Origin: Squalus acanthias
Lineage: Eukaryota
DNA: 64,000 bases
Direction: 5' to 3'
NCBI GenBank assembly: GCA_030390025.1
Contig: JASTWF010000321.1
Location: forward strand, 372,001-436,000
Made by a program: the position numbers and the translations under genes. Shown one piece after another: positions 16,629 through 64,000 of this stretch. Positions within the stretch are counted from its first letter, which is position 1; every line of letters begins with the position of its first letter. The notes beneath the pieces are model-generated. The model was not told the DNA's origin and ran no database searches. It saw nothing but the letters and a program-made list of their open reading frames with translations.

Positions 16629-16652
16629 CTACATTAGCATTTCTATTCAATG

Positions 16653-18323
16653 TGTAGAATTCGCAATATTATCGCGATTTTATATAATAAGGAGGAGACA
16701 CATAGTTTCGTACAAACAGCTTTATTTCAGCAGAATGCTGTCAGGTTGTCAAAGTGGACAGAAGCATACCTGTAAAATGGCCGCCACGCCTCGTGGCAGA
16801 ACGTTCTAGACTTTCCGATAAGCAGACAAGATGGCGTTCCAATAAACATTTGTGCGAGATCGGACGAGACTCAGCACATTTGAGATAATTCACAAGACAT
16901 AATGGGTTTGCATTTTACACATAAATACTGGAATCGGTCTCCCAGGTGCGAATAAGGGCTATTGTACCAAGCGATCAAGAACCCATCCAAAGACATTAAT
17001 ATGCAAAATCCCCACGACTCTACGATGAGAGAGCCGTTTGCGGGTAGTTACAGAAAGCATTTGGAAGCCCCAAAACCCCTCCAGGGAGACTACTAGCCGG
17101 TTCCACAATGGGAGAAGTATTAACGGGTACTCAGACAGTTACAAGTATCACCGAAACCCATTAAAGACGGAGATCACCCTATACAAGAAGTTTGAGCGCC
17201 AAAACCCTGACAAAAGATAGACATTAAGATTGGGCGGGAAAAGAGGAATTGCAGCACTATAACTGTAAGGTACAACCGTCCATCTGCCTCTTGCCGCTTG
17301 CTCTTGACTTTTGGATCCTGACTCTTGCTGCTCGACTTGCTAGAAGACTTTTGAACTTTCTGATCCGCCAGGATCAACCTCGTGGCTTGCCGCGAAGATC
17401 TGTGGAGAACTGGGCTGTGAAGCCTTGAAACGGGCACACCATCCCGAGAAGTCGGTAAACGGTGTTGGAACCGAAGGCCCGAGATGAGATGAGATGAGAT
17501 GAGATGAGATGAGAAGAGAAGAAGACGACCATACGTATCGCCACGGTCAGTAAGCCCCGACCGCGCCTGTAGGTCGAATAAACACTTTTCTTGCCCAGGA
17601 AGACTATTCTTTGAGTTTTACAAACTGGCGTGAGGGCACAGGAAGACCATTCTTCGAGTTTTATCGCATCGGTGCGAGGGCACAGGAAGACTATTTTTCG
17701 AGTCGTGTCGGAACTCCGAGGACAACACAGATCTTCATGACAGCAGACGGTCCAGCCTGCTAGCCGGAGCAGAAACGAGTAAACAAGTGGGGTACAGAGA
17801 CCCCTGATCAACACGTGGGTGGTCAGGTGCTGCGGTAAAAACATCCGAGCAGAGTTTCGTAATTCTCCGAGTTATCACGAGTGGTGAGCATGAGTCTCGA
17901 TCCTACAAATCTAGTTTAGGACAGGTATTGATAGGGGAGGGTTTAAGTTTTAAGGATAATTGTAATGTGTGTCCCCTTTTACCTTTTACGATGTGTCGTG
18001 CGCTCCTCGTTTCCCTAAAATTAGTTACATAACTGCGTGTAAGATTGTACTGTCATTAATCTGTGCTTATGACATGTATTTCGTAATCTTGAATAATATG
18101 CAATAAAGATTTTCCATTTCACACTATTCAACCGGGTCTACCTGAGTTTTCTCATCATTATTGCTCTCGCACCTAAGTCCAGTGTCAGAACCGTAAGGGC
18201 GAGTGGGTCGAACCACTCACAGGTGCTTATTGCAACAAGGCTGGCCGGAGACCAGAGCAAGCAATAGTATTAGGCAACGAAGGCCTAACCCCGCACAAGC
18301 ACCACGAACCGTAACCCCTTACA
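16653..18323 (+). repeat. 5' LTR (1671 bp)
   Basis: Starts TGTAGAATTCGC, ends CCCCTTACA; homologous to 24339-28522 and, inverted, to 25481-27118; internal (GAGAT)n near 17480; AATAAA at 18102. Confidence 0.92.
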
Positions 18324-18328
18324 GAAAA

Positions 18329-18346
18329 TGGCGACCGCGGCAGGAC
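18329..18346 (+). promoter_or_regulatory. Primer-binding site, tRNA-Arg(UCG)
   Basis: TGGCGACCGCGGCAGGAC is the reverse complement of the vertebrate tRNA-Arg(UCG) 3' end GTCCTGCCGCGGTCG-CCA as I recall it; 5 nt after the LTR. Confidence 0.88.
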
Positions 18347-18381
18347 ATTGACAGCGAGAGAATAATGTGTTAGACCCTGGT

Positions 18382-20133
18382 ATGAATGGGCGAAATGTCA
18401 TGGAAGAGAGAATAGCAGATTATGTGTTTGGAAAAGTGAATTTGACTAAGAAATGGATAAGTGACCTGCTGGTTGATAAGCGTCCACTAGAGGCAGCCGA
18501 GAGGTGGACAGATAGCAAGGAACATAAAAAGGCAGTGGAGAAAGCGGTCTGGCTGATGTGCTATAAAAGATAAGTCCAAATTTCGGACCAGGTCATCTTA
18601 GCACAGGCAGCTCAGATCAAGAGTTTAGATGTGGAAATGGACGAGAAGGTCGCGGGGGGGCAGCAGCTCATCACGACTTTAAATGCGTTGCATCAAGAAC
18701 GCCAGTTAGTCGCCAACCACCATGAGGCAAAAATAGATTACCTCGAGTGCCAGGTCACTGAGGCAAAGTTAAATGAGGGCAGATTAAAGGAACGATGTGC
18801 CCGCCTAGCTGCCCAAATAAAAGTCCAGGAAGAGAGCTTAACGGGGGTTAGGGCGGCATATAAGATGGCCCTCGAGGATAAATTTCAGGGGGCCGATCAC
18901 AGCGTCTGCCAAAAAGAGATAGGGAACCTTAAAAAGGCCTTGAAGAAAGCGCACGGCATGGTGTGCCTTATCAGCCCGTCAGCACACCAGCCGCTAGTGG
19001 ATGAGGGATTTCAGAAATCCCCACCGAACAAAGCAGAGGAAGTATTAGCCACTGTGCCCTCCACGCCACCCAGCTATTCGGCAACCTGGGTGAGGGAGGA
19101 AGTGGTAGAAGTAGAGAAAGAGCCCACTGAGGTAGAAGTGAAGCCGGGACCGTTGTGTCCGGTCACGGGTATCAAGAGGGGCCCGAACAGAGACGGTGGG
19201 GCACAGGGGGATCTCCTCAACCAGCTTGTGTTGCCTCACAGCTCACACCAGCTGAGGGTTATGATCAGTCATGTACGGAAGCTGGCCGAGTCAGACGACC
19301 CTTCCGTACATTTCAGGGAAGTAGAGCAAACCGCAGCCATTAACGGCTGCGACGATGGGGAAAAAGCAAAAATGCTGTTATTCTCATTAGACAGCTCGAT
19401 CCTTCAGTGTCTCTCAGACGAGAGCAAGAGGGGAACTAATACCTATGGGGAGCTAAGAGATGAGGTCCTAGAAGTGTTGGGAATGGACGATGAAGGTCCG
19501 TTCGTTCGATTGGGACGAACAGTGCAGATGGAGGGAGAACCCCCGAAGGTTTTCGCCGACAGGCTGTGGCCAGTATACCAGCGTAGCTGCCCAGGCGCGC
19601 CAGCGCGTCACCGCATAGACGGTGTCGGTTTAACTCATTGGCTCAGGTGTATAGTAGCCAACAGTTTGCCAGCCGTCAGGGAGCAGGCCAAAGCATGGTT
19701 TGATCCCACTAACCCCGCCACTACAGAGGAGTCGGTCCTAAATCGACTCACGGTAGGGTACCGTAATACCAGGAGTACGGGAGCACGTCCCCTTAAGGGA
19801 AAGGTGCATGAGGCACGACCCGCAGCCCCGGCTCAAAAGGAGTGGCATCAGGAGGGTAACCGCGCCCCGCAGGCCAGTAATGCTTGTTACGGGTGTGGGA
19901 AGACAGGGCATTGGCGCAAGAACTGCAGGAACCCTTGGAAGGAGTCCAGGGATAAAAATCCCGCAGTCCGAGCCCAGGCGCCTATCTCCGATAGGGGAGC
20001 TAGTGCACCCATCCATCCCGATGCGATCGAATCAGTGTTGGGAGCCATGCGCACCCTCATGATTTCGCATGGAAGGGTGGCAGTTGCTACCGGCCCCACA
20101 GATGCCGCAGCCCCGTCCAACAGTACCCAATGA
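18382..20133 (+). pseudogene. gag: gag (~583 codons) with one premature TAA at 18571-18573
   Basis: ORFs 18367-18573 and 18631-20133 share a frame with a single stop between them; N-terminal coiled coil, MHR-like QMEGEPPKVFADRL (19525-19566), zinc knuckle CYGCGKTGHWRKNC (19885-19926). Confidence 0.85.
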
Positions 20134-21243
20134 CTAGAGCCCACGCAGCCTGCCTACCTGTGTCCTTTTAAAAGACACACACAGGAGGGGGTCTCTGGTA
20201 GGGAGGCCAGGTTAGAAGAGCAGGCCTTGCGGGAGGAGAACGCCCGTTTAATCGGGAAAGTAGATGGGCTGGAAGGGCAGCTTAGAGAGCAGGCCCTGCG
20301 GGAGGAGAACGCCCGCTTAATGGGAAAGTTAGACGTGCTCATGCTAGAAGCACAGCTTAGAGAGATAAAAGCAGCCTACAAGGTAGCCAGAAGCAGGGAT
20401 TTAAATCAGTGCAAACTGTATAAGCCGGGTGCACAAGGGCCAACCACAGGGGCCAAACCTGCGAGTGGGGACTCGCAGCCCCAGGTAGGGCCACAGGGCA
20501 CACAGGCAGGCAAAGCAGCTTGCATCAGGGGAGAGGACATCCTAGAAAAATGTGAGATATTTTATTGGGGTTGGGAGACAGATGAGGAAGAGTTCGAGGA
20601 GCTCGACGAAGATAGTGACACTAGCGAGGAGGAGCTGGAATCGGAGGACGAAAGGGTCGCCCCCGATTCAGGTATAGGGGAGACAGGGGCTGCAGATAGA
20701 GATCCACAAAGGGTGGAGGCCGAAGCTGCAGGTCCCGAACGCAGGGGGGCGGAGCTAGAGGAGGCGGAGCCAGCTGCTGTGGTGGGACCACAGGGCGTGG
20801 TGATGGAAGCCTCAGAGCCCGAGCCGCCCGCCTTGAACGTCTTGCCCTCGAGGGAGGTAGGGACTGCGAGTGAAGGGCCGCCTACTGGGCCAAGTAGGGC
20901 GGTGCCACAAGCTGCAGATCCCGAGTTCAGGGAGGCGGAGTCAGGGGAGGCGGAGCCAGCGACTGTGGTGGGACCACGGGTCGCCACGCTGGAAGTCTCG
21001 AAACCCGGTCCGTCAGTCCTGGAGTTCCTGCCCCCGGTAGTTCCCCGTAGGTCAAGTCGGAAACCCCAGCCCAGAAGGATATGGGTAAGTCCCCCGTATG
21101 TCCCCAGGCGTAAGTTCAAGGTCAAGGCAGCTCAGGGAGATCCCAGTCCCAGCGCAGCAGTGACAGGCTGCGGCAGATCAAAGGGAGGGGTCAATGCCCT
21201 CCCACCGTTGGGAGAAGCCTGCGGCAGCAACCGCAGAATTTGA
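20134..21243 (+). CDS. ORF X: in-frame gag read-through extension (369 aa; coiled coil, acidic tract, Pro/Ala/Glu repeats, basic tail), function unknown
   Basis: Open from the codon after gag TGA to 21243 in the gag frame; no protease/RT/RNase H/IN motifs. Confidence 0.65.
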   Translation, partial: LEPTQPAYLCPFKRHTQEGVSGREARLEEQALREENARLIGKVDGLEGQLREQALREENARLMGKLDVLMLEAQLREIKAAYKVARSRDLNQCKLYKPGAQGPTTGAKPASGDSQPQVGPQGTQAGKAACIRGEDILEKCEIFYWGWETDEEEFEELDEDSDTSEEELESEDERVAPDSGIGETGAADRDPQRVEAEAAGPERRGAELEEAEPAAVVGPQGVVMEASEPEPPALNVLPSREVGTASEGPPTGPSRAVPQAADPEFREAESGEAEPATVVGPRVATLEVSKPGPSVLEFLPPVVPRRSSRKPQPRRIWVSPPYVPRRKFKVKAAQGDPSPSAAVTGCGRSKGGVNALPPLGEACGSNRRI

Positions 21244-21540
21244 GTAGGCCGCCCTGGGAACAGGCGGCACTGTACAGTTATTAAGAAGAGTGATATGTTT
21301 AGGATGAGTTTATAAGTTTGAGTTTATAGTTTTAAATCAGGTTAAGTCGGTAGTTTAATTTTGTTAACAGAAAAAGGTAAAATGATGGGAGTTTTAGAGA
21401 TAGGAATAGTTAAAGTCTATCCAGCGCACATGTCTTCTTACGTGAGGCGAGGTCAGGGGACCCGCTCACCCTTCACAAAAGCCAGAGACTCTTGGGAGGC
21501 TGGCTACCTCATTCTATCTGATCACAGGAACCAAGGAAGG

Positions 21541-23892
21541 ATGGAACGAATTCTAGTGGTGCTCACGGCAATCGGATGTGGACTGGCCTATCGAGGCCGC
21601 ACCAAGGACGTCGTGGTGTTTGGATGCTCCGGGGACACGGCCCCCATCGCGGTGGATGGGACCGGAAGGCGAGAGGCTGAGGAGACCGCCACTTATTTCC
21701 ACAAGGGAAGGTGGCCAGGATGGCTGGGAACGAATTCAACTGAGTATTCCAGTACATCGGGTTTTGCCTACCAAGAGACTTCTTTAATGTGCCCCAAAGT
21801 GAGGATCATCGCACCCAGAGGCAGCGTCACCGTCGGCAAACGGATTTGTTTGACTTGTAGTGGGAATGTCCCATTGAGCCGATGGTGGTGGCTGCGAAAG
21901 CTGAGTAAAAACATGAGGAACTCTTCAGTCGAGTGGGAGCGACTGGGTAATAATACCCATCGGACAATTACGGGGACAAACGGACAAGTGAGAGTCTGTT
22001 GGGACAAATGGTGGGAACCGGATGAGGGAATTTATGTATGTATGTGGGGATCAAAGCACGTTTGCCCCAAAGGCATCTCCATATTTTTCATCAATCAATG
22101 GCAGGATAACGGACAGGGGATGAGGTGGGATGCGAGCACCAGGGGATGCGGAGCTCCATACTCTCCGATCCCGGTAAATGCCACTGAACTCATTACGCGC
22201 CCACGCAAAGCCCCGCCCACGATTCCGGTGGTTCTAGCTAAGGAAGAAGGGTGCCCTAAAACCAGTAAGGGACCCGGGAATGGTTTGGTACTGGTCCCCA
22301 CAGACCAGATACTATTTCAGGGGGTACATTACGCGGTGGCCTCGGTGATTTTAAATCTCACCGAGGTGCGGTTACCAGAGTGGTGCCCCAAAAAGACGGA
22401 ACAGTTATATCAGGTCCTGTTGACCAAGATGTTTAGGCAATTTTATGAGTTCGATTTCGCGGAAATTGATAAAACAAGTTTGTACACCGCACCACATGAA
22501 GTTTTGGGTCAGGTGGGGAGGCAAAGAAGGGGTGTTGTGAACGACATGTTCACTGCTTTCAATACAGGTACATCTGTGGTCAACGCTCTAGACAGCGTGG
22601 AGCTGCAGACCCAGATTAATGGTTTAAAAACACAATTAAAAAGCATTCTCACAGATGAAAATAAGGTGGTTGGGTCTGGGTTACACGAGGACCAGGCCAT
22701 GACTCTCCATTTAAAAGAAATAATATCTGAACTAGAGAAACATGCGCGTACGGTAAACGCCCTGATCAGGGAAGATCGGAATGCGTCCGATCAGGCTGCG
22801 CAGAACGATGTGTGCGTGCTTTACGGGGCGTGGTTACTGGGCGAGGGCCGCAGTAATTTGGAGGATTTAAAACAAGGTTTGGTCCCGTCCTGGATAAGTA
22901 ACAAACACCTGCAGGCGCTCCACCCTTTTCAGAACGCTTTAAGCCCGTGCCAGCTCAGACTAGCTTCAGAAGCATACCCAGTCCCCGTGGACTGCGGACG
23001 ATCAAACCATACCATCATGGGTATAGTATTACGTATGCCGGTTTTGGGCGACACAGCAAAGCCCGCCCCGGTGTATCGGGTAGAGAACATTGGTGTCATT
23101 CAGGGGGGAGCCCACATTCGCTATGCAGCGGTTCCACCTTACGTCATCCGCTGGGAGCAAACGATGACAGGTACAGATCTCTCTGGTTGTCGTGGCCGGG
23201 GAGCCCACATAATACTGTGTCCCCAGCACTTGAATGCCTTTTTAACACCGCAGTGCGGGTTCAGAACGGCTGGCGCCAAGCCCATGAATTGCACCATGGA
23301 GGCAATGGCGCAAGATCATGTGCCTCCGCAGGTAGCATACATCGGGGGTGGAACATATTGTGTTACCACTGCAGCGCAACACTACCAGCATGGAAACCGT
23401 AGCCGGTGTCCGGTGAGTGACAGCAGTTTCTGTTTTAAACCCAGGGCGGAAGCTCAAGTAGCACAACAGCGAATTGTCCCGATCCCTGAACCATCCACTG
23501 TTCATCTCACAGTAAAGGAGAATTTTACCGACTTGCAGCGATTCGTCGCGCATTTCGGATACCTCATTCCCCCTCTCCCTGAACACCTCACCAAACTTTT
23601 GAAAGCCGTCGCGGTATCGCAAAAACATTTTTACACACTAGAGCAAAAGACTGTCGAGATAGGGACAGAAATTCTGGACATAGTAATTCCACCATGGTGG
23701 GATCTGTTCGCCAACATTGAAGTCCCTTCCTGGATCAGAATAACCTCCCACATTTTAGTTGTATGCCAAGTGTTTATTGTGATATACTTATTGGTTGTGC
23801 ATTGTAAGAGAGGCAAACGCCTCACCAAGAACGAAAACATGGGAGAGTGGCGAGAACGTTACGTGTGCATGCACGATGAAAGCACCGCGTAA
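21541..23892 (+). CDS. env: Envelope glycoprotein, 783 aa: signal peptide, Ig-like domain, F-type class I fusion protein, TM
   Basis: MERILVVLTAIGCGLA signal; ICLTC..WWW..DEGIYVC; RQRR|GVVNDMFTAFNTGTSVVNALD (22519-22530); heptad repeat; Cys-rich region; TM ILVVCQVFIVIYLLVV; splice acceptor ..tctgatcacag| at 21527. Confidence 0.85.
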   Translation: MERILVVLTAIGCGLAYRGRTKDVVVFGCSGDTAPIAVDGTGRREAEETATYFHKGRWPGWLGTNSTEYSSTSGFAYQETSLMCPKVRIIAPRGSVTVGKRICLTCSGNVPLSRWWWLRKLSKNMRNSSVEWERLGNNTHRTITGTNGQVRVCWDKWWEPDEGIYVCMWGSKHVCPKGISIFFINQWQDNGQGMRWDASTRGCGAPYSPIPVNATELITRPRKAPPTIPVVLAKEEGCPKTSKGPGNGLVLVPTDQILFQGVHYAVASVILNLTEVRLPEWCPKKTEQLYQVLLTKMFRQFYEFDFAEIDKTSLYTAPHEVLGQVGRQRRGVVNDMFTAFNTGTSVVNALDSVELQTQINGLKTQLKSILTDENKVVGSGLHEDQAMTLHLKEIISELEKHARTVNALIREDRNASDQAAQNDVCVLYGAWLLGEGRSNLEDLKQGLVPSWISNKHLQALHPFQNALSPCQLRLASEAYPVPVDCGRSNHTIMGIVLRMPVLGDTAKPAPVYRVENIGVIQGGAHIRYAAVPPYVIRWEQTMTGTDLSGCRGRGAHIILCPQHLNAFLTPQCGFRTAGAKPMNCTMEAMAQDHVPPQVAYIGGGTYCVTTAAQHYQHGNRSRCPVSDSSFCFKPRAEAQVAQQRIVPIPEPSTVHLTVKENFTDLQRFVAHFGYLIPPLPEHLTKLLKAVAVSQKHFYTLEQKTVEIGTEILDIVIPPWWDLFANIEVPSWIRITSHILVVCQVFIVIYLLVVHCKRGKRLTKNENMGEWRERYVCMHDESTA

Positions 23893-24326: not shown

Positions 24327-24338
24327 AACAGGAGGGAC
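24327..24338 (+). promoter_or_regulatory. Polypurine tract
   Basis: AACAGGAGGGAC directly before the 3' LTR TG. Confidence 0.7.
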
Positions 24339-24506
24339 TGTAGAATTCGCAAAATTATCGCGATTTTATAAAAATAAGAAGGAGACATAAAGTTTCGTAT
24401 AAACAGCTTTATTTCAGCAGAATGCTGTCAGGTTTCAAAACGGACACAAACAGCCTGTAAAATGGCCGCCACGCCTCGTGGCAGAAAGTTCTAGACTTTC
24501 AGTAGG

Positions 24507-25413
24507 CATAGAAACATAGAAACATAGAAAATAGGTACAGGAGTAGACCATTCGGTCCTTCGAGCCTGCACCGCCATTCAATGCGTTCATGGCTGAACAT
24601 GCTACCTCAGTACCCCATTCCTGCTTTCTCGCCATACCCCTTGATCCCCTTAGTTGTGAGTATTATATCTAACTCCCTTTTGAATATATTTAGCGAACTG
24701 GCCTCAACAACCTTCTGTGGAAGAGAATTCCATAGATTCACCACTCTCTGGGTGAAGAAGTTCCTCCTCAGCTCAGTCCTAAATGGCTTCCCCTTAATCC
24801 TTAGACTGTGACCCCTGGTTCTAGTTTTCCCTACCATTGGGAACATTCTGCCCGCATCTAATTTGTCTAAACCAGTCAGGATTTTAAATGTCTCTATAAG
24901 ATCCCCCCTCATTCTTCTGAACTCCAGAGGATACAAGTTCAGTTGACCCAATCTTTCTTGATATGTCAGTCCGGCCATCCCAGGAATCAATCTAGTGAAC
25001 CTTCGCTGCACTCCCTCAATAGCAAGAATGTCCTTCCTTAAGTTAGGAGACCAAAACTGCGCACAATACTCCAGGTGTGGCCTCACCAAGGCCCTGTACA
25101 ACTGTAGCATCACCTCCCTACTCCTGTACTCAAATCCCCTTGCTATGAAGGCCATCATTCCGTTTGCTTTCTTGACTGCCTGCTGCACTTGCATTCCCAC
25201 CTTCAGTGACTGATGTACCATGACGCCCAGGTCTCGTTGCACGTCCCCTTTCCCTAATCTGCCACCATTCAGGTAATAGTCCGCCTCTCTATTTTTACCA
25301 CCAAAGTGGATAACCTCACATTTATCCACATTGTACTTCATCTGCCATACATTTGCCCATTCACTCAACCTGTCCAAGTCACTCTGTAGCCTCCTAGCAT
25401 CCTCCTCATTGTT
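24507..25413 (-). mobile_element. 5'-truncated CR1 inserted in the 3' LTR
   Basis: Uninterrupted RT C-terminal ORF (LQSDLDRLSEW...KGYGEKAGMGY) and (TTTCTATG)n tail. Confidence 0.92.
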
Positions 25414-25480: not shown

Positions 25481-27118
25481 TGTAAGGGATTCTGACCCTG
25501 CGTGTCTCGCAGCCTGTGAGATTCACGCGGCTCTGTGCAGCCTGTATGTCAGTGCGGGTCTAGGCCTTGTTGCCTGTTCTGGTCTCCAGCCAGTCTGGGA
25601 ACACTAGACACACCTGTGAGTGGTTCGAATCACTCTCCCTTACGGTTCTCGACACTGGACTTAGATGCGAGAGCAGTAATGGAGATGAAACTCATGTAGA
25701 CTCGGTTTGAATGGTACGAAATGGAAAATCTTTATTGCATGATACTTAAGATTATGAAATACATGTCATAAGCACAGATTAATGACAGTACAATCTTACA
25801 AACAGTTATATAGTCGATCTTAGGGAAACGAGGAACGAACGGCACATAGTAAATAGGGGCACACATTACAAATATCCTTAATCCTTAAACCCTCCCCTAT
25901 CAATATCTATCCTAAACTAGATTCGTAGGATTTCGAGACTCATGCTCACCACTCGTGATAACTCGGAGAAATTCCGAATAGCTGATCGGATGTTTTTCAC
26001 CGCAGCACCCACGTGTCAGTCAGGAGATCTCCTGGTCCCACTTGTTTACTTGCTTCTGCTGCTCCGGCTAGCAGGCTGGAACGTCTGCTGTGATGAAGAC
26101 CTGTGTTGGTTGGTTTAACAGGTACTTTCGAGCACAGTCCAGTTATATCATCGATGCGATATGTTTCGTTACAAGTTCGAAGAAGTCTTCCTGGCAAGGA
26201 AAACTTGGCTAATCGACCTACAGGCGCGGTCGGGATTTACTGACCGTGGCGATGGATATGGTCTTCCTCTCTTCTCATCTCATCTCATCTCATCTCATCT
26301 CATCTCGGGCCTTTGGTTCCGCTGCCAGTTACCAACATAGGTCTTCGTTACGCGACACGAGGTAGATCCGAACGGATCAGAAAGTTCAACAGTCCTTTTC
26401 AAAAGAGACAACAGGCAAGCAGGAGCGAGCCCAACTACGAGTACACAGGAGCAGCCACGAGGTTACGAATCGATCGGATAAGAGAAAGATGGACGGTTTG
26501 GAGCCTGCAATTATAGTGCAAAAATCTTCCGTTTCCCGCCCAACTATAATGTCCATTCTTTTGTTTAAGGTCTGGCGCTCAAAATGTCTTGTATGGGTGA
26601 TCTCCGTTCTTAATGGGTTTCGGGGCTACTCGTAAATGTCTGAGTACCTGTTAATATTTCTCCCATTGTTAAATCGGTCGGCGTTCTCCCTGGAGGGGTT
26701 TTGGGGCTTCCAAGTGTCCTGTATAACTACCTGCTAACGGCTCTCTCATCGTAGAGTCGTTGGGATTTTACATATTAATGTCTTTTGGATGGGCCCTTGA
26801 TTACTCGGTACAATGGCTTTCCTTTGTACCTGGGAGACCGATTTCAGTATTTATGTGTATACTGCAAACCCATAATGTCTCGTGTATTATCTTCACTGTG
26901 CTGAATCTTAATCGATCTTGCACAAATGTTTATTGGAACGCCATCTTGTCTGCCTGTTGAAAAGTCTAGAATGTTCTGTCACGAGGTGCGGCGGCCATTT
27001 TACAGGCTGCTTGTGTCCACTTTAAACCTGTCAGCATTCTGCTGAAATAAAAGCTGTTTGAACGAAACTCTGTGTTTTCTCCTTATTAATAAAATCGCGA
27101 TATATTGCGAATTCTACA
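25481..27118 (-). mobile_element. Solo LTR of a related subfamily, inverted inside the 3' LTR
   Basis: Reverse strand TGTAGAATTCGC...CCCTTACA, 1638 bp; flanked by ATGA/GTGA (4-bp TSD with one mismatch). Confidence 0.9.
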
Positions 27119-28522
27119 GTGACAAGACGCGATGGGTTTACATTTTAAACATGAATACTGAAATCGGTCTCCCAGGTGCAAACAAGGGCTATTGTACTGA
27201 GCGATCAAGGACCCATCCAAAGACATTAATATGCAAAATCCCCACGACTCTACGATGAGAGAGCCGTTTGCGGGTACTTACAGCAAGCATTTGGAAGCCC
27301 CAAAACCCCTCCAGGGAGACTACTAGCCGGTTCCACAATGGGAGAAATATTAACGGGTACTCAGACAGTTACAAGTGTCACCGAAACCCATTAAAGACTG
27401 AGATCACCCTATACAAGAAGTTTGAGCGCCAAAACCCTGACAAAAGATAGACATTAAGATTGGGCGGGAAAAGAGGAATTACAGCACTATAACTGTAAGG
27501 TACAACCGTCCATCTTTCTCTTGCTGCTTTGACTCGCTGGAAGGCTGCTGAACTTTTATTCTCTTGCCTGACGGCTCTGCACTCTGATCCGCTAGGATCA
27601 ACCTCGTGGCTTGCCGCGAAGATCTGTGGAGAACTGGGCTGTGAGGCCTGGAAGCGGGCGCACCATCCCGAGGGGTCGGTAAACGGAGTTGGAACCGAAG
27701 GCCCGAGAGGAGATGAGATGAGATGAGATGAGATGAGAAGAGAAGAAGACGACAATACGTATCGCCACGGTCAGTAAGCCCCGACCGCGCCTGTAAGTCG
27801 AATAAACACTTCTTTGAATTCTATCGGCTACTCCACAACTGGCCCAGGAAGACCCTTCTTCAAGTTCTATCGAATCGGTGTAGGGCACAGGAAGACTTTT
27901 TTTTGAGTAGTATCAGAACTCCAAGGGCAACACAGATCTTCATGACAGCAGACGGTCCAGCCAGCTAGCCGGAGCAGAAACGAGTAAACAAGTGGGGTAC
28001 AGAGACCCCTGATCAACACGTGGGTGGTCAGGTGCTGCGGTAAAAACATCCGAGCAGAGTTTCGGAATTCTCCGAGTTATCACGAGTGGTGAGCATGAGT
28101 CTCGATCCTACAAATCTAGATTAGGACAGGTATTGATAGGGGAGGGTTTAAGTTTTAAGGATAATTATAATGTGTGTCCCCTTTTACGATGTGTCGTGCG
28201 CTCCTCGTTTCCCTAAAATTAGTTTCATAACTGTGTGTAAGATTGTACTGTCATTAATCTGTGCTTATGACATGTATCTCGTAATCTTGAATAATATGCA
28301 ATAAAGATTTTCCATTTCGCACTATTCAACCGGGTCTGCCTGAGTTTTCTCTCCATTACTGCTCTCGCACCTAAGTCCAGTGTCAGAACCGTAAGGGCGA
28401 GTGGGTCGAACCACTCACACGTGTCTAGTGTTACCAGGCTGGCTGGAGACCAGAACAGGCAACAAGGCCTAACCTCGCACTAGCACCCAGGCTAAGCACA
28501 GAGCCACAGGTCACCCCTTACA

Positions 28523-30520: not shown

Positions 30521-30832
30521 CTATCTTCCTTTCAATCTGCTTGGTTTCCAGTCAGGTTTCAGTGGCAAGTAACATTCGTGCCACACAAGTGCCAGGCAAT
30601 GACCATCTCCAAGAGAAAGTCTAACCACCACCCCTTGACATTCAATGGCATTACCATCGTCAAATCCCCCACCAACAACATCCTGGGGGTCACCATTGAC
30701 CAGAAACTTAACTGGACCAGCCACATAAATACTGTGGCAACAAGAGCGGGTCAGAGGCTGGGTATTCTGTGGCGAGTGTCTCAATAAATAAACTAAAACT
30801 AGAAAATTAATAAGTAATATAAGGGTTAAGTC

Positions 30833-31780
30833 ATGGCAGTAGAGCTCGGACCTGTGTCATGCTCCTCCTGTAACATGTGGGAAATCATGGACGCTTCCTG
30901 TGTCCCTGACAACCATGTGTGCGGGAAGTGTGTCCAGCTGCAGCTCATGTGGGACCGCATGACGGCCCTTGAGCTGCGGATGGACTCACTTTGGAGCATC
31001 CACGATTCTGAGAGGGTTGTGAATAGCACATTTAGTGAGTTGGTCACACCGCAGGTTAAGGCCAGAGTAGATAGTACATGGGTGACCAAAAGGCAGAGCA
31101 AGGGCAGGAAGGTAGTGCAGGAATCCCCTGGGGTTGTCTCCCTCAGCAACAGGTTCACCGCCTTAGGTGCTGTTGTCGGGGGGGATGACTCATCGGGGGA
31201 AGGCACCAGCAGCCAGGCTCATGGCACCATGACTGGCTCTGTTGCAAAGAAGGGAGGGAAAAAGAGTGGCAGGGCTATAGTAATAGGGGATTTGATTGTA
31301 AGGGGAATAGATAGGAGTTTCTGTGGTCGCGACCGAGACTCCAGGATGGTAATTTGCCTCCCTGGTGCAAGGGTCAAGGATGTCTCGGCGCGGGTGCAGA
31401 ACATTCTGGAGGGGGAGGGGGAACAGCCAGTTGTCGTGATACATGTTGGTACCAACGACGTAGCTAAAAAAAGGGAAGAGGTCCTACAAGTAGAATTTAG
31501 GGAGTTAGGAGCCAAGCTAAAAAGTAGGACCTCGAAGGTAGTAATCTCTGGATTACTACCAGTGCCACGTGCTAGTAAGAGTACAGAGAACAGGATAGTT
31601 AGGCTAAATACGTGGCTTGAGCAGTGGTGTAAGAGGGAGGGTTTTAAATTTTTGAGGCATTGGGACCAGTTTTGTGGTAGGTGTGACCTATACAAAAGGG
31701 ACGGTCTACACCTGTGCAAAGGTGGAACTGATGTTCTCGGGGTAAATTTTGATAAAGCAGTTCGGGAGCATTTAAACTAG
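30833..31780 (+). CDS. CR1 ORF1p (zinc finger, coiled coil, SGNH/GDSL esterase-like domain), 315 aa
   Basis: CSSC..CGKC; VIGD.IVR, CLPGARV, HVGTND and DGLHL blocks. Confidence 0.92.
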   Translation: MAVELGPVSCSSCNMWEIMDASCVPDNHVCGKCVQLQLMWDRMTALELRMDSLWSIHDSERVVNSTFSELVTPQVKARVDSTWVTKRQSKGRKVVQESPGVVSLSNRFTALGAVVGGDDSSGEGTSSQAHGTMTGSVAKKGGKKSGRAIVIGDLIVRGIDRSFCGRDRDSRMVICLPGARVKDVSARVQNILEGEGEQPVVVIHVGTNDVAKKREEVLQVEFRELGAKLKSRTSKVVISGLLPVPRASKSTENRIVRLNTWLEQWCKREGFKFLRHWDQFCGRCDLYKRDGLHLCKGGTDVLGVNFDKAVREHLN

Positions 31781-34722
31781 TATGGCAGGGGGCTAGAAAC
31801 CCATGTAGTGAAATAGAGGAAAGTGAAAGGCAGACAGAAATAAATGGTAAAAAGGAGAGGAACAAAAAACAAAGGGCCAAACTAATTCATAAAAAATGTG
31901 AGCATAAAAAAAGCCTGAGGGTTTTATACCTTAATGCGAGAAGCATCAGGAACAAGGTAGATGAATTAGCTGTGGAAATAGAGGTTAATAATTATGATCT
32001 AATTGGGATTACGGAAACATGGTTGCAGGGTGAGCAGGGCTGGGAGCTTAACATACAGGGGTATTCAGTATTTAGGAAGGATCGACAAAAAAGAAAGGGA
32101 GGAGGGGTAGCATTGCTGGTAAAAGAGGGGATAAATGCAATTGAAAGGAAGGATATTAACTCAGTTAATACAGAATCTATATGGGTGGAGCTAAGAAATA
32201 GCGAGGGGCGAAAAACATTAATAGGAGTGGTATATAGGCCTCCAAATAGTAAAATAGAGGTTGGGGAGGGCATCACGAGGGAAATTAGAGAAGCGTGCAA
32301 TAAGAGCACAGCTGTCATCATAGGTGACTTTAACTTACATATAGATTGGACTAGCCTAATCAGTAAAAATAATGAGGAGGAGGAATTCCTTGAGTGTTTA
32401 AGGGATGGTTATCTGGATCAATATGTCGAGGAACCAACTCGGGAACAGGCTATATTGGACTGGGTACTGTGCAATGAGAAGGGACTAATTAGTAATCTTG
32501 TTGTACGGGGACCCTTGGGTCAGAGCGATCATAACATGATCGATTTCTCACTCGAAATGGAGAGCGAAGAAATTGACTCAGAGACTCAGGTCCTGAATTT
32601 AAACAAGGGGAATTATGATGCCATTAGACGGGAACTGAGTAGGTCTGATTGGACAACGTTCCTGGGAGGACTGGAGGTAGATAAACAATGGCAAGCATTT
32701 AAAGATAGAATGACAAAATTGCAAAAATTGTTTATACCAATCTGGCATAAAAGGAAATCTAAAAAGGTGACTCAACCGTGGATAACAGGGGAAATTAGAG
32801 ACAGCATAAAATCCAAAGATAGGGCGTATAAAATAGCCAAAAAACGCGCCAGAGCGGAAGATTGGGAACAGTTTAAGATAGAGCAAAGGAGGGCAAAGGG
32901 CTTAATCAAGAAGGGCAAAATAGCTTACGAAAGCAAGCTGGCGGAAAATATAAAAACTAACTCCAAAAGCTTTTATAAGTATATCAAGAGGAAAAGACTG
33001 GTGAAAACCAAAGTTGGTCCATTGCAGTCAGATACGGGGGAATATATAATGGGAAATAAGGAAATGGCAGACCAACTAAATGCATACTTTGGGTCAGTCT
33101 TTACGAAGGAAGACACAAAAAACCTCCCTGGGATATCGGGAAAAATAGGGACATTGGCAAAGGAGGAACTGACGCAAATCAATATCTCTAAGGATATGGT
33201 GTTAAGGAAGCTAAAGGGATTGAAGGCGGACAAATCCCCAGGGCCTGATAACATGCATCCTAGGGTACTGAAGGAGGTGGCCCTAGAGATAGCGGATGCA
33301 CTAAGCATGATTTTTCAGAATTCATTAGACTCGGGAACAGTGCCCATGGATTGGAGGGTAGCTAACGTTACCCCACTATTCAAAAAGGGGGGTAGGGAAA
33401 AAGCAGGTAATTACAGACCTGTAAGCCTTACATCAGTTGTGGGCAAAATGCTGGAGTCCATCATTAAGGATGAAATAGCCGAGCACTTAGCAAATGGGGA
33501 CAGGATAGGACAGAGTCAACATGGATTTACAAAGGGTAAATCGTGCTTGACTAATCTATTGGAATTTTTTGAGGGAGTAACTGGTAAAATAGATGGGGGA
33601 GAGCCAGTAGATGTGGTGTACCTGGACTTCCAAAAGGCCTTCGATAAGGTCCCACATAAAAGATTAGCATGGAAAATTGAAGCTCATGGGATAAAGGGGA
33701 AAGTATTGACGTGGATAGAGAACTGGCTGTCAGATAGAAAACAGAGAGTTGGAATAAACGGCTCATTTTCTGAATGGCAGGCAGTAACAAGTGGGGTACC
33801 ACAGGGATCTGTCCTGGGTCCCCAGCTGTTCACAATTTATATTAATGACCTGGATCAGGGAGTCGAATGCAGCATTTCCAAATTTGCAGACGACACTAAA
33901 CTAGGAGGGGGGGTGGGCTCAGAGGAGGAGACCAGGAAGCTCCAGAGCGATTTGGACAGACTGGGTGATTGGGCGGATAAATGGCAGATGCACTATAATG
34001 TGGACAAGTGCGAAGTTATCCACCTTGGGTGCAGGAACGGGAGGGCAAATTATTATTTAAATGGCAATAAATTGGGAGAGGGGGAAGTACAGAGAGACCT
34101 GGGTGTTCTTGTACACCAGTCACTGAAGGCGAGCATGCAGGTGCAACAGGCGGTCAAGAAGGCAAACGGTATGCTGGCCTTCATAGCAAAAGGGTTGGAA
34201 TACAGGAACAGGGATACCTTGCTGCAGCTGTACAGGGCACTGGTGAGACCACACCTCGAGTACTGTGTACAGTTTTGGTCGCCTCATCTGAGGAAAGATG
34301 TTCTTGCCATGGAGGGGGTGCAGCGGCGATTCACCAGGCTGATACCAGGAATGGCGGGATTGACCTATGAGGAGAGACTATGTAGTTTAGGGATGTACAC
34401 ACTGGAGTTTAGAAGATTGAGAGGGGACCTCATAGAAGTGTATAAAATTCTGACAGGTCTAGACAGATTAGATGCAGAAGGAATGTTTCCCTTGGCGGGT
34501 GAGAACAGAACTAGAGGACATAATTTAAGGATAAGGGCTAAACCATTTAGGACAGAAATGAGGGGGAATTTCTTCACTCAGAGAGTGGTGAACCTGTGGA
34601 ACTCATTGCCACAGAGGGCAGTGTACGCCAGCTCATTAAATATATTTAAGAGGGAATTAGATATATTTCTACAGGCAAAAGGGGTTAAGGGTTACGGAGA
34701 GAAGGCGGGGACAGGATACTGA
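31756..34722 (+). CDS. CR1 ORF2p (APE endonuclease plus reverse transcriptase)
   Basis: Stop-to-stop frame open from 31756; YLNARS, ITETW, YRPP, GDFN, SDH; QHGF, LDFQKAFD, GVPQGSVLGP, FADD. Confidence 0.95.
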   Translation, partial: SSSGAFKLVWQGARNPCSEIEESERQTEINGKKERNKKQRAKLIHKKCEHKKSLRVLYLNARSIRNKVDELAVEIEVNNYDLIGITETWLQGEQGWELNIQGYSVFRKDRQKRKGGGVALLVKEGINAIERKDINSVNTESIWVELRNSEGRKTLIGVVYRPPNSKIEVGEGITREIREACNKSTAVIIGDFNLHIDWTSLISKNNEEEEFLECLRDGYLDQYVEEPTREQAILDWVLCNEKGLISNLVVRGPLGQSDHNMIDFSLEMESEEIDSETQVLNLNKGNYDAIRRELSRSDWTTFLGGLEVDKQWQAFKDRMTKLQKLFIPIWHKRKSKKVTQPWITGEIRDSIKSKDRAYKIAKKRARAEDWEQFKIEQRRAKGLIKKGKIAYESKLAENIKTNSKSFYKYIKRKRLVKTKVGPLQSDTGEYIMGNKEMADQLNAYFGSVFTKEDTKNLPGISGKIGTLAKEELTQINISKDMVLRKLKGLKADKSPGPDNMHPRVLKEVALEIADALSMIFQNSLDSGTVPMDWRVANVTPLFKKGGREKAGNYRPVSLTSVVGKMLESIIKDEIAEHLANGDRIGQSQHGFTKGKSCLTNLLEFFEGVTGKIDGGEPVDVVYLDFQKAFDKVPHKRLAWKIEAHGIKGKVLTWIENWLSDRKQRVGINGSFSEWQAVTSGVPQGSVLGPQLFTIYINDLDQGVECSISKFADDTKLGGGVGSEEETRKLQSDLDRLGDWADKWQMHYNVDKCEVIHLGCRNGRANYYLNGNKLGEGEVQRDLGVLVHQSLKASMQVQQAVKKANGMLAFIAKGLEYRNRDTLLQLYRALVRPHLEYCVQFWSPHLRKDVLAMEGVQRRFTRLIPGMAGLTYEERLCSLGMYTLEFRRLRGDLIEVYKILTGLDRLDAEGMFPLAGENRTRGHNLRIRAKPFRTEMRGNFFTQRVVNLWNSLPQRAVYASSLNIFKRELDIFLQAKGVKGYGEKAGTGY

Positions 34723-40285: not shown

Positions 40286-40632
40286 GTTGCATTTCTCCTA
40301 ACCAATAAAAACAGTGATAATAATAATTGAAATATTCCTAAAAAGTGCGTCTTGTCATTTGGGCCTGCAAGCCCCGGCCATATTACTTTCTCAAAACATT
40401 CCCACATGACAGGGTCGATGGTAAATGTTATTGTCAACAGGTCATCTCACACATGTAGAATGCTGAACTATTTAGCCTAAACAATACAGTAAATCGGAGG
40501 ATGTGACGCTACGCTGTGGCCACGCCGTACCTTGAGCACTGGGCCCTGTTCTGGTCATTAAGACATCAAGGGAGTTTTTCAATACCAGGATGCACTGGAT
40601 GAGACTGATCCTTGGGGGAAAAGGACTGAATT

Positions 40633-43600
40633 TCTCCCCAGAGCCCCCTTTCCCCAGTCTCCCTCTCTCCCCGAGTCCCCATTCCCCAGTCTCCCTCTCT
40701 CCCCGAGCCCCCATTCCCCCTCTATCCCCGAGCCCCCATTTCCCAGTCTCCATCTCTCCCCGAGCCCCCATTCCCCAGTCTCCCTCTCTCCCCGAGCCCC
40801 CATTCCCCAGTCTCTCTCTCTCCCCGAGCCCCCATTCCCAGTCTCCCTCTCTCCCGAGCCCCCATTCCCCAGTCTCCCTCTCTCCCGAGCCCCATTCCCC
40901 AGTCTCTCTCTTTCTCCCCTGAGCCCCCATTCCCCAGTCTCCTCTATCTCCCCGAGCCCCCATTCCCAGTCTCCCTCTCTCCCCGAGCCCCCATTCCCCA
41001 GTCTCTCTCTCTCCCCGAGCCCCCAATCCCAGTCTCCTCTCTCCCACGAGCCCCCATTCCCCAGTCTCTCTCTCTTCCCCGAGCCCCCATTCCCCAGCTC
41101 TCCCTCTCTCCCCGAGCCCCCATTCCCCAGTCTCCCTCTCTCCCCGAGCCCCCATTCCCAGTCTCTCTCTCTCCCGAGCCCCATTCCCCAGTCTCCCTCT
41201 CTCCCCGAGCCCCCATTCCCCAGTCTCTCTCTCCCCGAGCCCCCATTCCCCAGTCTCCTCTCTCCCCTGAGCCCCCCATTCCCCAGTCTCCCTCTCTCCC
41301 CGAGCCCCCATTCCCAGTCTCTCCTCTCTCCCCGAGCCCCCATTCCCCAGTCTCCCTCTCTCCCCGAGCCCCCTATCTCCAGTCTACCTCTCTCCCCGAG
41401 CCCCCATTCTCCAGTCTCCCTCTCTCCCCGAGCCCCCATTCCCCAGTCTCCCTCTCTCCCCGAGCCCCCATTCTCCAGTCTCCCTCTCTCCCCGAGCCCC
41501 CATTCTCCAGTCTCCCTCTCTCCCCGAGCCCCCATTCCCCAGTCTCTCTCTCTCCCCCGAGCCCCCATTCCCCAGTCTCCCTCTCTCCCCGAGCCCCCAT
41601 TCCCAGTCTCTCTCTCTCTCCCCGAGCCCCCATTCTCCAGTCTCTCTCTCTCCCCGAGCCCCCATTCCCCAGTCTCCCTCTCTCCCCGAGCCCCCATTCT
41701 CCAGTCTCACTCTCTCCCCGAGCCCCCATTCCCCAGTCGCTCTCTCTCCCCGAGCCCCCATTCCCCAGTCTCCCTCTCTCCCCGAACCCCCATTCCCCAG
41801 TCTCCCTCTCTCCCCGAGCCCCCATTCCCCAGTCTCCCTCTCTCCCCGAGCCCCCATTTCCCAGTCTCTCCTCTCTCCCCGAGCCCCCCATTTCCCAGTC
41901 TCTCTCTTCCCGAGCCCCCATTCCCCGGTCTCACTCTCTCCCCGAGCTCCCATTCCCCAGTCTCCCTCTCTCCCCGAGCTCCATTCCCCAGTCTCCCTCT
42001 CTCCCCGAGCCCCCATTCCCCAGTCTCTCTCTCTCTCCCCGAGCCCCCATTCCCCAGTCTCTCTCTCCCCGAGCCCCCATTCCCAGTCTCCTCTCTATCC
42101 CCGAGCCCCCATTCCCCAGTCTCTCTCTCTCCCCCCGAGCCCCATTCCCCAGTCTCCCTCTCTCCCGAGCCCCATTCCCCAGTCTCCCTCTCTCCCCGAG
42201 CCCCCATTCCCCAGTCTCTCACTCTCCCCGAGCCCCCATTCCCCAGTCTCCCTCTCTCCCCGACCCCCATTCCCCAGTCTCCCTCTCTCCCCGAGCCCCC
42301 ATTCCCCAGTCTCCCTCTCTCCCGAGCCCCCATTTCCCAGTCTCACACTCTCTCCCCGAGCCCCCATTCCCCAGTCTCTCTCTTCCCCGAGCCCCCATTC
42401 CCCAGTCTCACTCTCTCCCCGAGCTCCCCATTCCCCAGTCTCCCTCTCTCCCCGAGCCCCCATTCCCCAGTCTCCCTCTCTCCCCGAGCCCCCATTCCCC
42501 AGTCTCTCTCTCTTCCCCGAGCCCCCATTCCCCAGTCTCTCTCTCCCCGAGCCCCCATTCCCCAGTCTCTCTCTCTCCCCGAGCCCCCATTCCCCAGTCT
42601 CTCTCTCTCCCCCGAGCCCCCATTCCCCAGTCTCCCTCTCTCCCCGAGCCCCCATTCCCCAGTCTCCCTCTCTCCCCGAGCCCCCATTCCCCAGTCTCTC
42701 ACTCTCCCCGAGCCCCCATTCCCCAGTCTCTCTCTCTCTCTCCCCGAGCCCCCATTCCCCATTCTCCCTCTCTCCCCGAGCCCGCATTCCCCAGTCTCTC
42801 TCTCTCCCCCGAGCCCCCATTCCCCAGTCTCCCTCTCTCCCCGAGTCCCCCATTCCCCAGTCTCCCTCTCTCCCCGAGCCCCCATTCCCCAGTCTCTCTC
42901 CCCCTGAGCCCCCATTCCCCAGTCTCCCTCTCTCCCCGAGTCCCCATTCCCCAGTCTCCCTCTCTCCCCGAGCCCCCATTCCCCAGTCTCCCTCTCTCCC
43001 CGAGTCCCCATTCCCCAGTCTCCCTCTCTCCCCGAGCCCCCATTCCCCCTCTATCCACGAGCTCCCATTCCCCAGTCTCCATCTCTCCCCGAGCCCCCAT
43101 TCCCCAGTCTCCCTCTCTCCCCGAACCCCCATTCCCCAGTCTCTCTCTCTCCCCGAGCCCCAATTCCCCAGTCTCCCTCTCTCCCCGAGCCCCCATTCCC
43201 CAGTCTCCCTCTCTCCCCGAGCCCCCATTCCCCAGTCTCTCTCTCTCCCCGAGCCCCAATTCCCCAGTCTCCCTCTCTCCCCGAGCCCCCATTCCCCAGT
43301 CTCCCTCTCTCCCCGAGCCCCCATTCCCCAGTCTCTCTCTCTCCCCCCGAGCCCCCATTCCCCAGTCTCTCTCTCTCCCGAGCCCCCATTCCCCAGTCTC
43401 TCTCTCTCCCCGAGCCCCCATTCCCCAGTCTCTCTCTCTCCCCGAGCCCCCATTCCCCAGTCTCTCTCTCTCCCCGAGCCCCCATTCCCCAGTCTCTCTC
43501 TCTCCCCGAGCCCCCATTCCCCAGTCTCCCTCTCTCCCCGAGCCCCCATTCCCCAGTCTCTCTCTCTCCCCCGAGCCCCCATTCCCCAGTCTCCCTCTCT

Positions 43601-48380: not shown

Positions 48381-48633
48381 TCAAATGTACTTCATTGGCT
48401 GTAAAGCACTTTGGGACGTCCTGAGGTGGTGAAAGGCACTGTATAAATGCAAGATCTTTCTTTCTACCTATTTTAGATCAATGGCCCAGAAATCGCAGCA
48501 AAATAGACTGGCATTATTTAGAAGTTTACTCAGTAAATGCGATTCTCTGTTGCTTCATTGACACAAGTGAAATTTAGCAAAATAAACCAATGCAACTGAC
48601 AAGTGACTGAATGTAAAGAGTTAATAGAGTCAT

Positions 48634-59600: not shown

Positions 59601-60139
59601 AAAGCACAAATGTCAAAGTAAATGTTGTTATAAAACACATTTTGTTGTGCACTTGAGTAGTAACAAATTCAGTCTTCTGGTTATAATCATTTTATTCTTT
59701 AACTTCAGTATTAAAAGCAATTTACAACCTGAGTATTGTCACAGATAAGTGTGCGAACCTAGGCATGGGTCCTGTCTCGTACTGCTTAAACAAATGAAAA
59801 AGCTTATATTTATACACTGTTTTCTTATCAAACTGGAACTGGCATTGCCTAATATGGTAGTCTCTGGCTACAGCATAGTCCAGAGATACAAGGCTACATT
59901 TTCTTCAACATGCTGTGGTAAGCCTAACCCTTCTAGTTTCTAGACATTCTTACCATAAATAAACATATCCAAGGCTGGTTGGTTGCGAACACCAGCAGTT
60001 GCTAAGTGAAATCTGTATCTCTCTCTAACTCTATCTCTCTCTCTCTCTAATGATGCCATCCACCTTTTTTTCCTATATTCAATGAACTAAACATGAACAC
60101 CTTTCAGAAGCTGAATTAACCGAGTTCCATATGCCAACA

Positions 60140-63690: not shown

Positions 63691-64000
63691 CTGAGACTGA
63701 CTGATTGACTTTCTTTCATATACCCAGCATGGGCTTGAACTCAGATACTTTCCGCATACTCACAGAGATCAGCGCGAGAGCACAAAACATCCCAAACACA
63801 GGAGCTGACCCTGAGATGGTGCGACACTATCTCTGCAGCTACATTAGCAACCTTTAGAGATGAACCCCTGTCCGCGCCCATCCTACTTTATCATTTTCTT
63901 GTGGTTACAGTTGGAATATTGCAGGTGTGTGACGTCAAGCCTAAGGAATTTCCCACCTTTGACCTCTTCAATTATTTTATTTCAGCTCAGCTTTGAAGAC

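Follow-up and report, generated by a model that had tools for sequence, protein, structure and literature searches.

The window analysed here is a stretch of 64,000 nucleotides of the shark Squalus acanthias (contig JASTWF010000321.1, positions 372,001 to 436,000), and it contains a provirus whose env gene is an uninterrupted open reading frame (ORF) of 783 codons. We consider it likely that this env belongs to a recently amplified family of endogenous retroviruses (ERVs), that it is not a host gene, and that its product joins a fusion core of the paramyxovirus/pneumovirus F type to an immunoglobulin (Ig)-bearing extension serving as a receptor-binding tip. The N-terminal extension is ~220 residues long and probably holds a degenerate Ig domain.

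The env frame (21541-23892, forward strand, from the list of open reading frames) contains no stop, as the first-pass annotation of this DNA had stated, and the other landmarks reported there were all located: a basic cleavage site in mid-protein, a post-cleavage subunit of ~450 residues, a Cys-rich region and a transmembrane (TM) segment. The predicted furin site, RQRR, occupies residues 327-330 (22519-22530), and cleavage there leaves a subunit of 453 amino acids. The fusion peptide is weakly hydrophobic (highest 19-residue Kyte-Doolittle mean 0.59). Helices are predicted at residues 333-444 and 681-708 with a Cys-rich beta region between them, and a hydrophobic TM spans residues ~730-757. 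The order of furin site, fusion peptide, heptad repeat A (HRA), Cys-rich region, heptad repeat B (HRB) and TM, together with the long F1 subunit, is that of F-type proteins. The CX6CC motif of gamma-type TM subunits, said earlier to be missing, is indeed absent from the whole 783-residue Env.

An AlphaFold2 model of Env, built from an alignment of 30 sequences, had high confidence for the greater part of residues 240-310 and 420-650, with predicted local distance difference test (pLDDT) values of 70-94 in the core. The best Foldseek match of this model in the PDB was the F protein of human parainfluenza virus 3 (hPIV3; E 2.4e-12), and the F proteins of Langya virus, respiratory syncytial virus (RSV) and Newcastle disease virus (NDV) were also found. 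Among predicted viral proteins, baculovirus F, a walleye-retrovirus Env (E 4.7e-10) and feline foamy virus Env matched as well. The top 14 rows from VIA-align were, without exception, F proteins or foamy Env (NDV F: Z 11.2, rmsd 18.1, 382 residues aligned; foamy Env: Z 9.1, rmsd 7.7, 294 aligned). The F-type fusogen proposed in the first pass was therefore recovered by both structural methods: as far as prediction allows, the Env core is securely a class I (class Ib) fusogen of the paramyxovirus/pneumovirus F type, and on the model the match is far above chance. Sequence-only searches did not recover the fold, as there was no match to PF00523 and PDB searches with phmmer and with profiles returned coiled-coil noise. 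The shark Env shares its core fold, furin site, heptad repeats and Cys-rich domains with the F proteins of hPIV3 (1ZTM), RSV (3RKI) and NDV (3MAW) at only 9-16% identity; those viruses, in contrast, have a separate attachment protein, and their fusion peptides are less polar. The predicted Env structures of walleye epidermal hyperplasia virus and walleye dermal sarcoma virus also match the F-type model.

Residues 84-172 probably adopt an Ig-superfamily (IgSF) fold, although this is not proven; the judgement was reached because four kinds of weak test agree in direction. The motif set consists of SVTVGKRICLTC (C106), W115-W117 and DEGIYVC (D161-C167), so that the B-strand Cys, C-strand Trp and D-x-G-x-Y-x-C follow one another in canonical order, with 61 residues between cysteines C106 and C167. 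This is the pattern that had been noted at 21790-22050, and the core residues are retained in 19-20 of 20 copies of the family. Ig_3 was the sole Pfam family matched by the isolated window domain (E 0.0087, 17 bits), and was found in four of five family members (best E 7.6e-4). A profile of the family's Ig domain had nine matches in the PDB (E 0.08-3.3), six of which are IgSF adhesion proteins. With the low-confidence model of the domain, nearly all of the 50 Foldseek matches listed were V domains of antibodies or nanobodies (E 0.03-0.09). Neighbours in a protein language-model space (Atlas) were Ig clusters (0.88-0.91, with ~150 shared features), which is a lead rather than proof. The segment that precedes the domain, residues 17-83, is also conserved (52-79% identity between species).

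Several results weigh against an Ig assignment. No Ig test is significant alone, and every Pfam Ig_3 score lies under the curated cut-off (17 versus 30 bits for the window domain). The domain is modelled as a beta-sandwich, but with pLDDT of ~50; VIA gave this model Z values of no more than 4.9, with fibronectin type III (FnIII) and C2 domains scoring level or higher. When the entire N-terminal region was used as a profile, the PDB gave no match. The Ig domain of the first-pass annotation is borne out in its motifs, is suggested by the V-domain matches and the recurrence of Ig_3, and is weakened by the sub-cut-off Pfam scores, the poor model confidence and the mixed folds.

What stands ahead of the fusion core varies among related Envs. 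The common core of all relatives begins at C-P-x(n)-G-L. N-terminal to this core, Cys-Trp-Cys patterns that read as Ig-like by eye, with marginal statistics, occur in P0013, L032, P0019 and P0051; P0034 has a V-set-like domain without cysteines (E 0.045), for which the PDB search gave no relative; P0012 and P0023 carry an unrelated Cys-rich domain; and in P0036 and P0048 the core follows directly after the signal peptide, leaving the slot empty. P0034 and P0036 are sisters in the Env core tree (100/99), so the slot content changes between close relatives. When slots were scored with the family Ig profile, the score was reached by 1 (P0019), 2 (P0013), 7 (L032) and 11 (P0051) of 200 shuffles, and by 41 (P0023), 42 (P0012, scored as a whole protein) and 59 (P0034) of 200. 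The Ig-like resemblance is weak, and the Envs concerned are 19-28% identical in the core. Because the profile scores are marginal, these sequences do no more than suggest a common origin of the Ig-like domains in different Envs. The Env tree, with weak deep nodes and two long branches, accommodates one gain followed by losses as well as several gains. In the frog relatives P0019 and P0051 a second basic cleavage-like site lies ahead of the Ig-like domain, the Mantella one having 16 cluster members.

By analogy with F proteins and foamy Env, a spliced env mRNA would give an Env trimer, furin would cut it at RQRR to yield Ig+F2 and F1 (453 residues) subunits, and refolding of the heptad repeats would drive membrane fusion. 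In those proteins cleavage primes the trimer, HR1 extends the fusion peptide and HR2 folds back, and F has been described as a minimal scaffold that acquires receptor-binding modules N-terminally or internally (PMC11468914, in part). The Ig-containing extension would be such a module, in a slot that relatives fill otherwise or leave empty, since a retrovirus has no separate attachment protein. Receptor binding is, on these analogies, its most likely role, and the tip would be kept by selection during Env-dependent reinfection. Relatives without an occupied slot count against this role, since they indicate that the slot is not required for the F core. Foamy Env (PDB 8RM0/8RM1; PMC11468914, in part) is a retroviral Env with an F scaffold and a receptor-binding module, as proposed for the shark element; however, its receptor-binding domain (RBD), which has a distinct fold, sits within the scaffold, whereas the shark module is N-terminal and Ig-like. 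Gamma-type Envs have N-terminal Ig-like RBDs with a Pro-rich linker, and exchange of these RBDs has been reported (bioRxiv 10.1101/2024.03.17.585361, in part). The N-terminal Ig-like domain, the Pro-rich linker and the exchange of RBDs between Envs are points of likeness between the shark element and RBD-C of murine and feline leukaemia viruses (MLV/FeLV), Env-Pb1 and the SIRP-like Env-Dbi. Gamma-type RBDs, in contrast, sit on a short CX6CC-type TM subunit, and RBD-C is without the B-F disulfide, the cysteines of which are present in the shark Ig domain. Unlike the gamma-type set, the shark domain has no identifiable cellular donor.

Three other accounts of residues 84-172 were weighed. The domain could be an immune decoy or an adhesion aid carried by virions and infected cells, with attachment left to the F core or to other N-terminal segments; relatives with an empty slot retain the core, lokiretrovirus Envs do without the extension (three proteins), and the profile matches to IgSF adhesion proteins, though weak, point the same way. 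We regard this as unlikely, as the position of the domain before a Pro-rich linker is the gamma-type RBD arrangement (bioRxiv 10.1101/2024.03.17.585361, in part), no likeness to a specific immune receptor was found, and the domain is conserved about as well as the core (71% identity to the skate protein, against 77-84% for the F core). It is also improbable that the segment is a virus-specific beta-sandwich that merely mimics Ig motifs. This would explain why all scores are sub-threshold and why VIA mixes folds at low Z, and the extra Cys103 and Cys153 and the Trp-rich strands are atypical of Ig domains; but the order and spacing of the motifs, the retention of core residues among the copies and the fact that Ig_3 is the only Pfam family matched by any member argue against such mimicry. 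Recent capture of a host IgSF exon is hardly credible, despite reported captures of a SIRP IgV domain (bioRxiv 10.1101/2024.03.17.585361, in part) and of nectin3 (PMC4299795, in part). Skate and sawshark elements have the domain at 64-75% identity, and it is weakly recognizable in far more distant Envs. No cellular donor appeared in the PDB profile search or among matches to longer proteins, in which (in a search needing shared 5-mers) all eight domain-profile matches resemble fragments of retroviral Env or gene models to which such fragments are joined. Since the domain is common to skate and sawshark elements and no donor was found, any Ig capture is, judged from sequence, ancient, and the captured module of the first-pass annotation does not stand as a recent event. 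In the sawshark annotation, P0003 and P0004 are env-family pieces fused to Niban-like and zinc-finger gene models, by exonisation or as an annotation artefact.

It is clear that the env with the probable IgSF domain belongs to a large family. When the 3.7-Gb host assembly was searched with the protein, 57 of 12,966 candidates were scored; each of these env matches was full-length and 96-100% identical, and 51 were stop-free. Markers were counted as exact motifs allowing two mismatches (reversed controls gave 0 each). The env Ig-region 23-mer occurred 3,700 times in the genome, a reverse transcriptase (RT) marker 2,182 times and a marker for the insert at the pol deletion 1,510 times, the last two summing to about the env-marker count; a long terminal repeat (LTR) marker allowing one mismatch occurred at least 7,313 times, a figure not comparable with the others. 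Among the 20 top-scoring copies, 11 have pol and nine have the pol deletion. Two of the 11 pol-bearing copies have an uninterrupted 1,496-codon frame, and the Pol order in the family is protease (PR), RT, tether, RNase H (RH) and integrase (IN). Named Env homologues were from frogs as well as from skate (76% identity), sawshark and further sharks; no placental species was indicated, and the link to placental sharks raised in the first pass was not borne out.

The family is recently amplified. LTR pairs are 98.5-99.5% identical in five of the seven copies that could be compared (one further pair is 94.9% identical and one is rearranged), which corresponds to ~11-34 million years at a slow rate (PMC4422223, in part) or to 1-3 million years at a tenfold faster rate. 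Together with ~3,700 copies and the predominance of stop-free frames, this agrees with the recent activity proposed earlier. Pairwise pN/pS was 0.13 for env (21 copies) and 0.34 for gag (16 copies). A caution is that selection of the 20 copies by protein score pushes pN/pS down and LTR identity up. However, env pN/pS was also 0.13 against a 93%-identical copy not chosen by score (110.5/539 synonymous and 47.5/1,807 non-synonymous sites); for the Ig domain alone this pair gave 0.24, from few changes. Env is under purifying selection, and this, with the retention of env in pol-less copies, fits reinfection with Pol supplied in trans; mechanisms of mobilisation by trans-supply have been listed (PMC10435555, in part). 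Amplification of copies that keep env without pol suggests spread by infection rather than by intracellular copying. That the env frame is open would follow from the youth of the family and from its spread by Env-dependent reinfection. Fourteen sequencing runs from seven studies hold 24-34% of the words of the element, none on record as RNA; contigs from four of these runs cover the element, with no joint at 21527 among the joints listed, and this speaks neither for nor against expression or splicing. The same assembly (G000, loci L029-L038) also holds a minimum of two older families of F-type env (at least 83 and at least 66 matches), mostly broken, and L032, a member of such a family, has an Ig-like pattern in a frame of 784 codons.

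The window copy itself (Table 1) is defective. The premature stop in gag noted in the first pass is at 18571-18573. PR, RT, RH and IN, the loss of which had escaped mention, are deleted, and the copy belongs to a pol-less sub-family (~1,500 marker matches). The 369-codon frame between gag and env is not a separate gene, as its last 842 nucleotides (20402-21243) are 97% identical to the pol end in sister copies; the insert ahead of them (20134-20402) contains two tandem coiled-coil repeats, with a weak match (E 0.01) to a Gag-like fragment of a related family. The two LTRs are 89-91% identical. Compared with the LTRs of sister copies (eight of eight), the 5' LTR is 87-89% and the 3' LTR 89-97% identical, from which we infer that the LTRs have recombined between sub-types and are not old. 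LTR divergence is therefore no age signal for this insertion, so that the diverged LTRs reported earlier are real but say nothing of its age. No target-site duplication was found in the flanks. The window copy would be a passenger without pol that was mobilised in trans before it recombined and was broken.

Primer-binding sites of 14 copies match a tRNA-Arg(TCG) isodecoder found once by pattern, those of the window copy and of L026 match an isodecoder in large tandem arrays, and that of L016 is a mix; two isodecoders are as expected, since every round copies the site anew from its primer. The 64-kb window contains no tRNA gene. At about 39.0-42.2 Mb of G000:C26 lie tandem arrays, repeated every 1.62 kb, in which a tRNA-Arg(TCG) gene is embedded; the pattern has 431 matches genome-wide.

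Table 1. Features of the provirus and of its env gene in the window
Feature	Position	Strand	Basis or remarks
5' LTR	16652..18325	+	~1.67 kb; other LTR sub-type than the 3' LTR
Primer-binding site, complement of tRNA-Arg(TCG)	18329..18346	+	Matched to the 3' end of genomic tRNA-Arg(TCG)
gag	18328..20133	+	Coiled coil, capsid region, one CCHC knuckle; ends at the in-frame TGA that divides gag and pol in the family
pol remnant, 369-codon frame	20134..21243	+	Gag-like coiled-coil insert of ~270 nt, then Pol C-terminal tail
Probable env splice acceptor AG (predicted)	21526..21527	+	Predicted from sequence; just 5' of the env ORF
env ORF	21541..23892	+	783 aa, 10 N-glycosylation sequons
Putative signal peptide, residues 1-16	21541..21588	+	Hydrophobic N-terminus; judged by eye
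N-terminal segment, residues 17-83	21589..21789	+	Conserved; pLDDT <50
Probable Ig-superfamily domain, residues 84-172	21790..22056	+	C106, W115-117, D161-x-G-x-Y-x-C167
Cys/Trp segment and Pro-rich linker, residues 173-237	22057..22251	+	Sequence; low model confidence
Part of the fusion core equivalent to F2, residues 238-330	22252..22530	+	C-terminal end is the furin site RQRR
F1-equivalent ectodomain	22531..23727	+	Fusion peptide, HRA (333-444), Cys-rich domains, HRB (681-708)
TM helix with short cytoplasmic tail	23728..23889	+	Model and sequence
3' LTR, three pieces	24338-24508, 25406-about 25460, 27120-28522	+	Split by two insertions
LINE (long interspersed nuclear element) fragment in 3' LTR	about 24503-25407		Nested insertion
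Inverted LTR of a related sub-family in 3' LTR	about 25529-27118	inverted	76-83% identical to the 5' LTR

An env that stays open beside a stopped gag and a missing pol, between LTRs 89% identical, might seem to have been co-opted by the host, as a syncytin-like gene or a restriction factor. The argument, put forward in the first pass, fails because an open env is ordinary in a young family of several thousand copies: 51 of the 57 best matches are stop-free, and the pol deletion is common to ~1,500 of ~3,700 copies. The 3' LTR is moreover closer to other copies than the 5' LTR is, there is no target-site duplication and the LTR divergence carries no age, so co-option of this locus is very unlikely. 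The F-type Env also raised the prospect that the element is the first lokiretrovirus of cartilaginous fishes. Lokiretroviruses (PMC7947760; PMC9040795) do share an F-type Env, a dual RNase H (PMC7947760 section 5) and a tether alike by eye with the element; tether and second RNase H are, however, common to all retroviruses. Their RT motifs are PFGY(A/S)NSPAEF and IYVDD (PMC7947760 supplement), whereas those of the element are L(P/S)QGFHNSP and QYVDD, as in canonical retroviruses. A tree of RT and tether places the element inside the canonical clade (100/96), apart from the loki-motif elements, and an RT-only clade with lokiretroviruses was rejected (approximately unbiased (AU) test, p = 0.018). 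The three full lokiretrovirus Env proteins in the same supplement are without an N-terminal extension, in contrast to the shark Env; lokiretroviruses were present in none of six chondrichthyan genomes screened there, and the loki motif had no match in viral contigs. Affinity with lokiretrovirus Env, as first proposed, is thus confined to the shared F type, and membership of that group is most improbable.

In these trees the lokiretroviruses were represented by three contigs found by the loki motif and not by the published set. The RT and tether tree comprised loki-motif contigs, foamy-like, class I and gypsy rows, with ERV-L, ERV4, ERV3 and class II references left out; the lack of ERV-L, ERV4 and class II references in the RT trees tells against a firm placement. 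P0075, P0150 and P0172 were dropped from one tree and P0150 from another, and P0074 is placed differently from tree to tree, as the RT stretch taken from it was not the same. The element is excluded from both class I (99/99) and the foamy clade (100/100) and falls in a basal group of unsettled branching, with coelacanth and frog elements (42-44% identity). Its Gag has a Cys-His knuckle, which together with the RT position separates it from spumaretroviruses, and it differs from class I (gamma/epsilon) in RT position and in having no CX6CC TM. The zinc knuckle in Gag and the GPY motif after integrase set it apart from ERV3/ERV4, which have neither a Gag zinc finger nor a GPY/F motif (Table 1 of PMC4299795, in part). 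From its sequence the element is probably a basal canonical retrovirus that is neither class I, foamy nor loki, and probably belongs to the group of snakehead retrovirus (SnRV), a culturable fish virus and the nearest exogenous relative found.

The best RT match among 19 viral loci was a record of 10,688 nucleotides (L043; 41%), the length given for SnRV (PMC12193657, in part). Its Env core is homologous to that of the family (86%, E 5e-6, 357 columns), and its N-terminus carries V-x-V-x-x-G-x-x-V-x-L-T-C, a Trp and T-Y-Q-C, with a V-set hint at E 0.095. When this Ig-like stretch (6131-6450 of L043) was compared with the family profile, 4 of 500 shuffles reached its score; we found no description of it in open-access full text. 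A gag with a coiled coil and one CCHC knuckle and an in-frame stop before pol are shared by SnRV and the element. The element uses a tRNA-Arg primer, and an arginine tRNA primer is likewise a feature of SnRV. The Envs differ in length (>1,100 codons in SnRV versus 783) and in the cytoplasmic tail (136 residues versus short), and are ~20% identical. RT trees do not group SnRV with the element, but neither do they dismiss their kinship: SnRV falls toward class I at 89/96 in the RT and tether tree, and a grouping of the two was not rejected (AU p = 0.226). SnRV-like ERVs have been described in elephant shark (CmiERV lineage I; PMC4422223, in part). An env frameshift mutant of SnRV fails to spread (PMC12193657, in part).

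Elsewhere in the window, a satellite of 32-bp units spans 40500-48400; its GC content is 65-67%, its strands are strongly skewed and several of its frames are open. A LINE at 30830-34722 has a 988-codon endonuclease-RT frame and a piece of an ORF1 resembling an esterase, and there are several other LINE fragments. Clusters of a 67-bp repeat occupy 60100-63700.

Retroviral Envs of the F type are known from foamy viruses, lokiretroviruses and errantiviruses, as are Ig-fold RBDs from gamma-type Envs. An F-type Env with an Ig-fold tip was not found in open-access full text, and the accessible parts of PMC11521997, PMC12440569, PMC13709493, PMC8672886, PMC8278194, PMC12583693, PMC10435555 and PMC13524379 (section 6) contain no description of this architecture. 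The finding extends the model of a minimal F scaffold with swappable RBDs to a basal orthoretroviral lineage, and documents a very large burst of env-retaining ERVs in a cartilaginous fish. It bears on the origin of retroviral env and gives a testable prediction for the attachment site of SnRV. A broader proposal, which we hold tentatively and judge possible rather than probable, is that SnRV-like retroviruses, SnRV included, attach through an anciently captured IgSF domain in a swappable slot that was filled, exchanged and emptied time and again from sharks to frogs, on an F scaffold that is the ancestral Env shared with foamy, loki and walleye-virus Envs, and that the family may still reinfect the germ line, with 40% of its copies as pol-less passengers still carrying env. 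If this is true, the F scaffold would be the ancestral retroviral Env, and thousands of Env-coding copies may still be reinfecting the germ line of their host.

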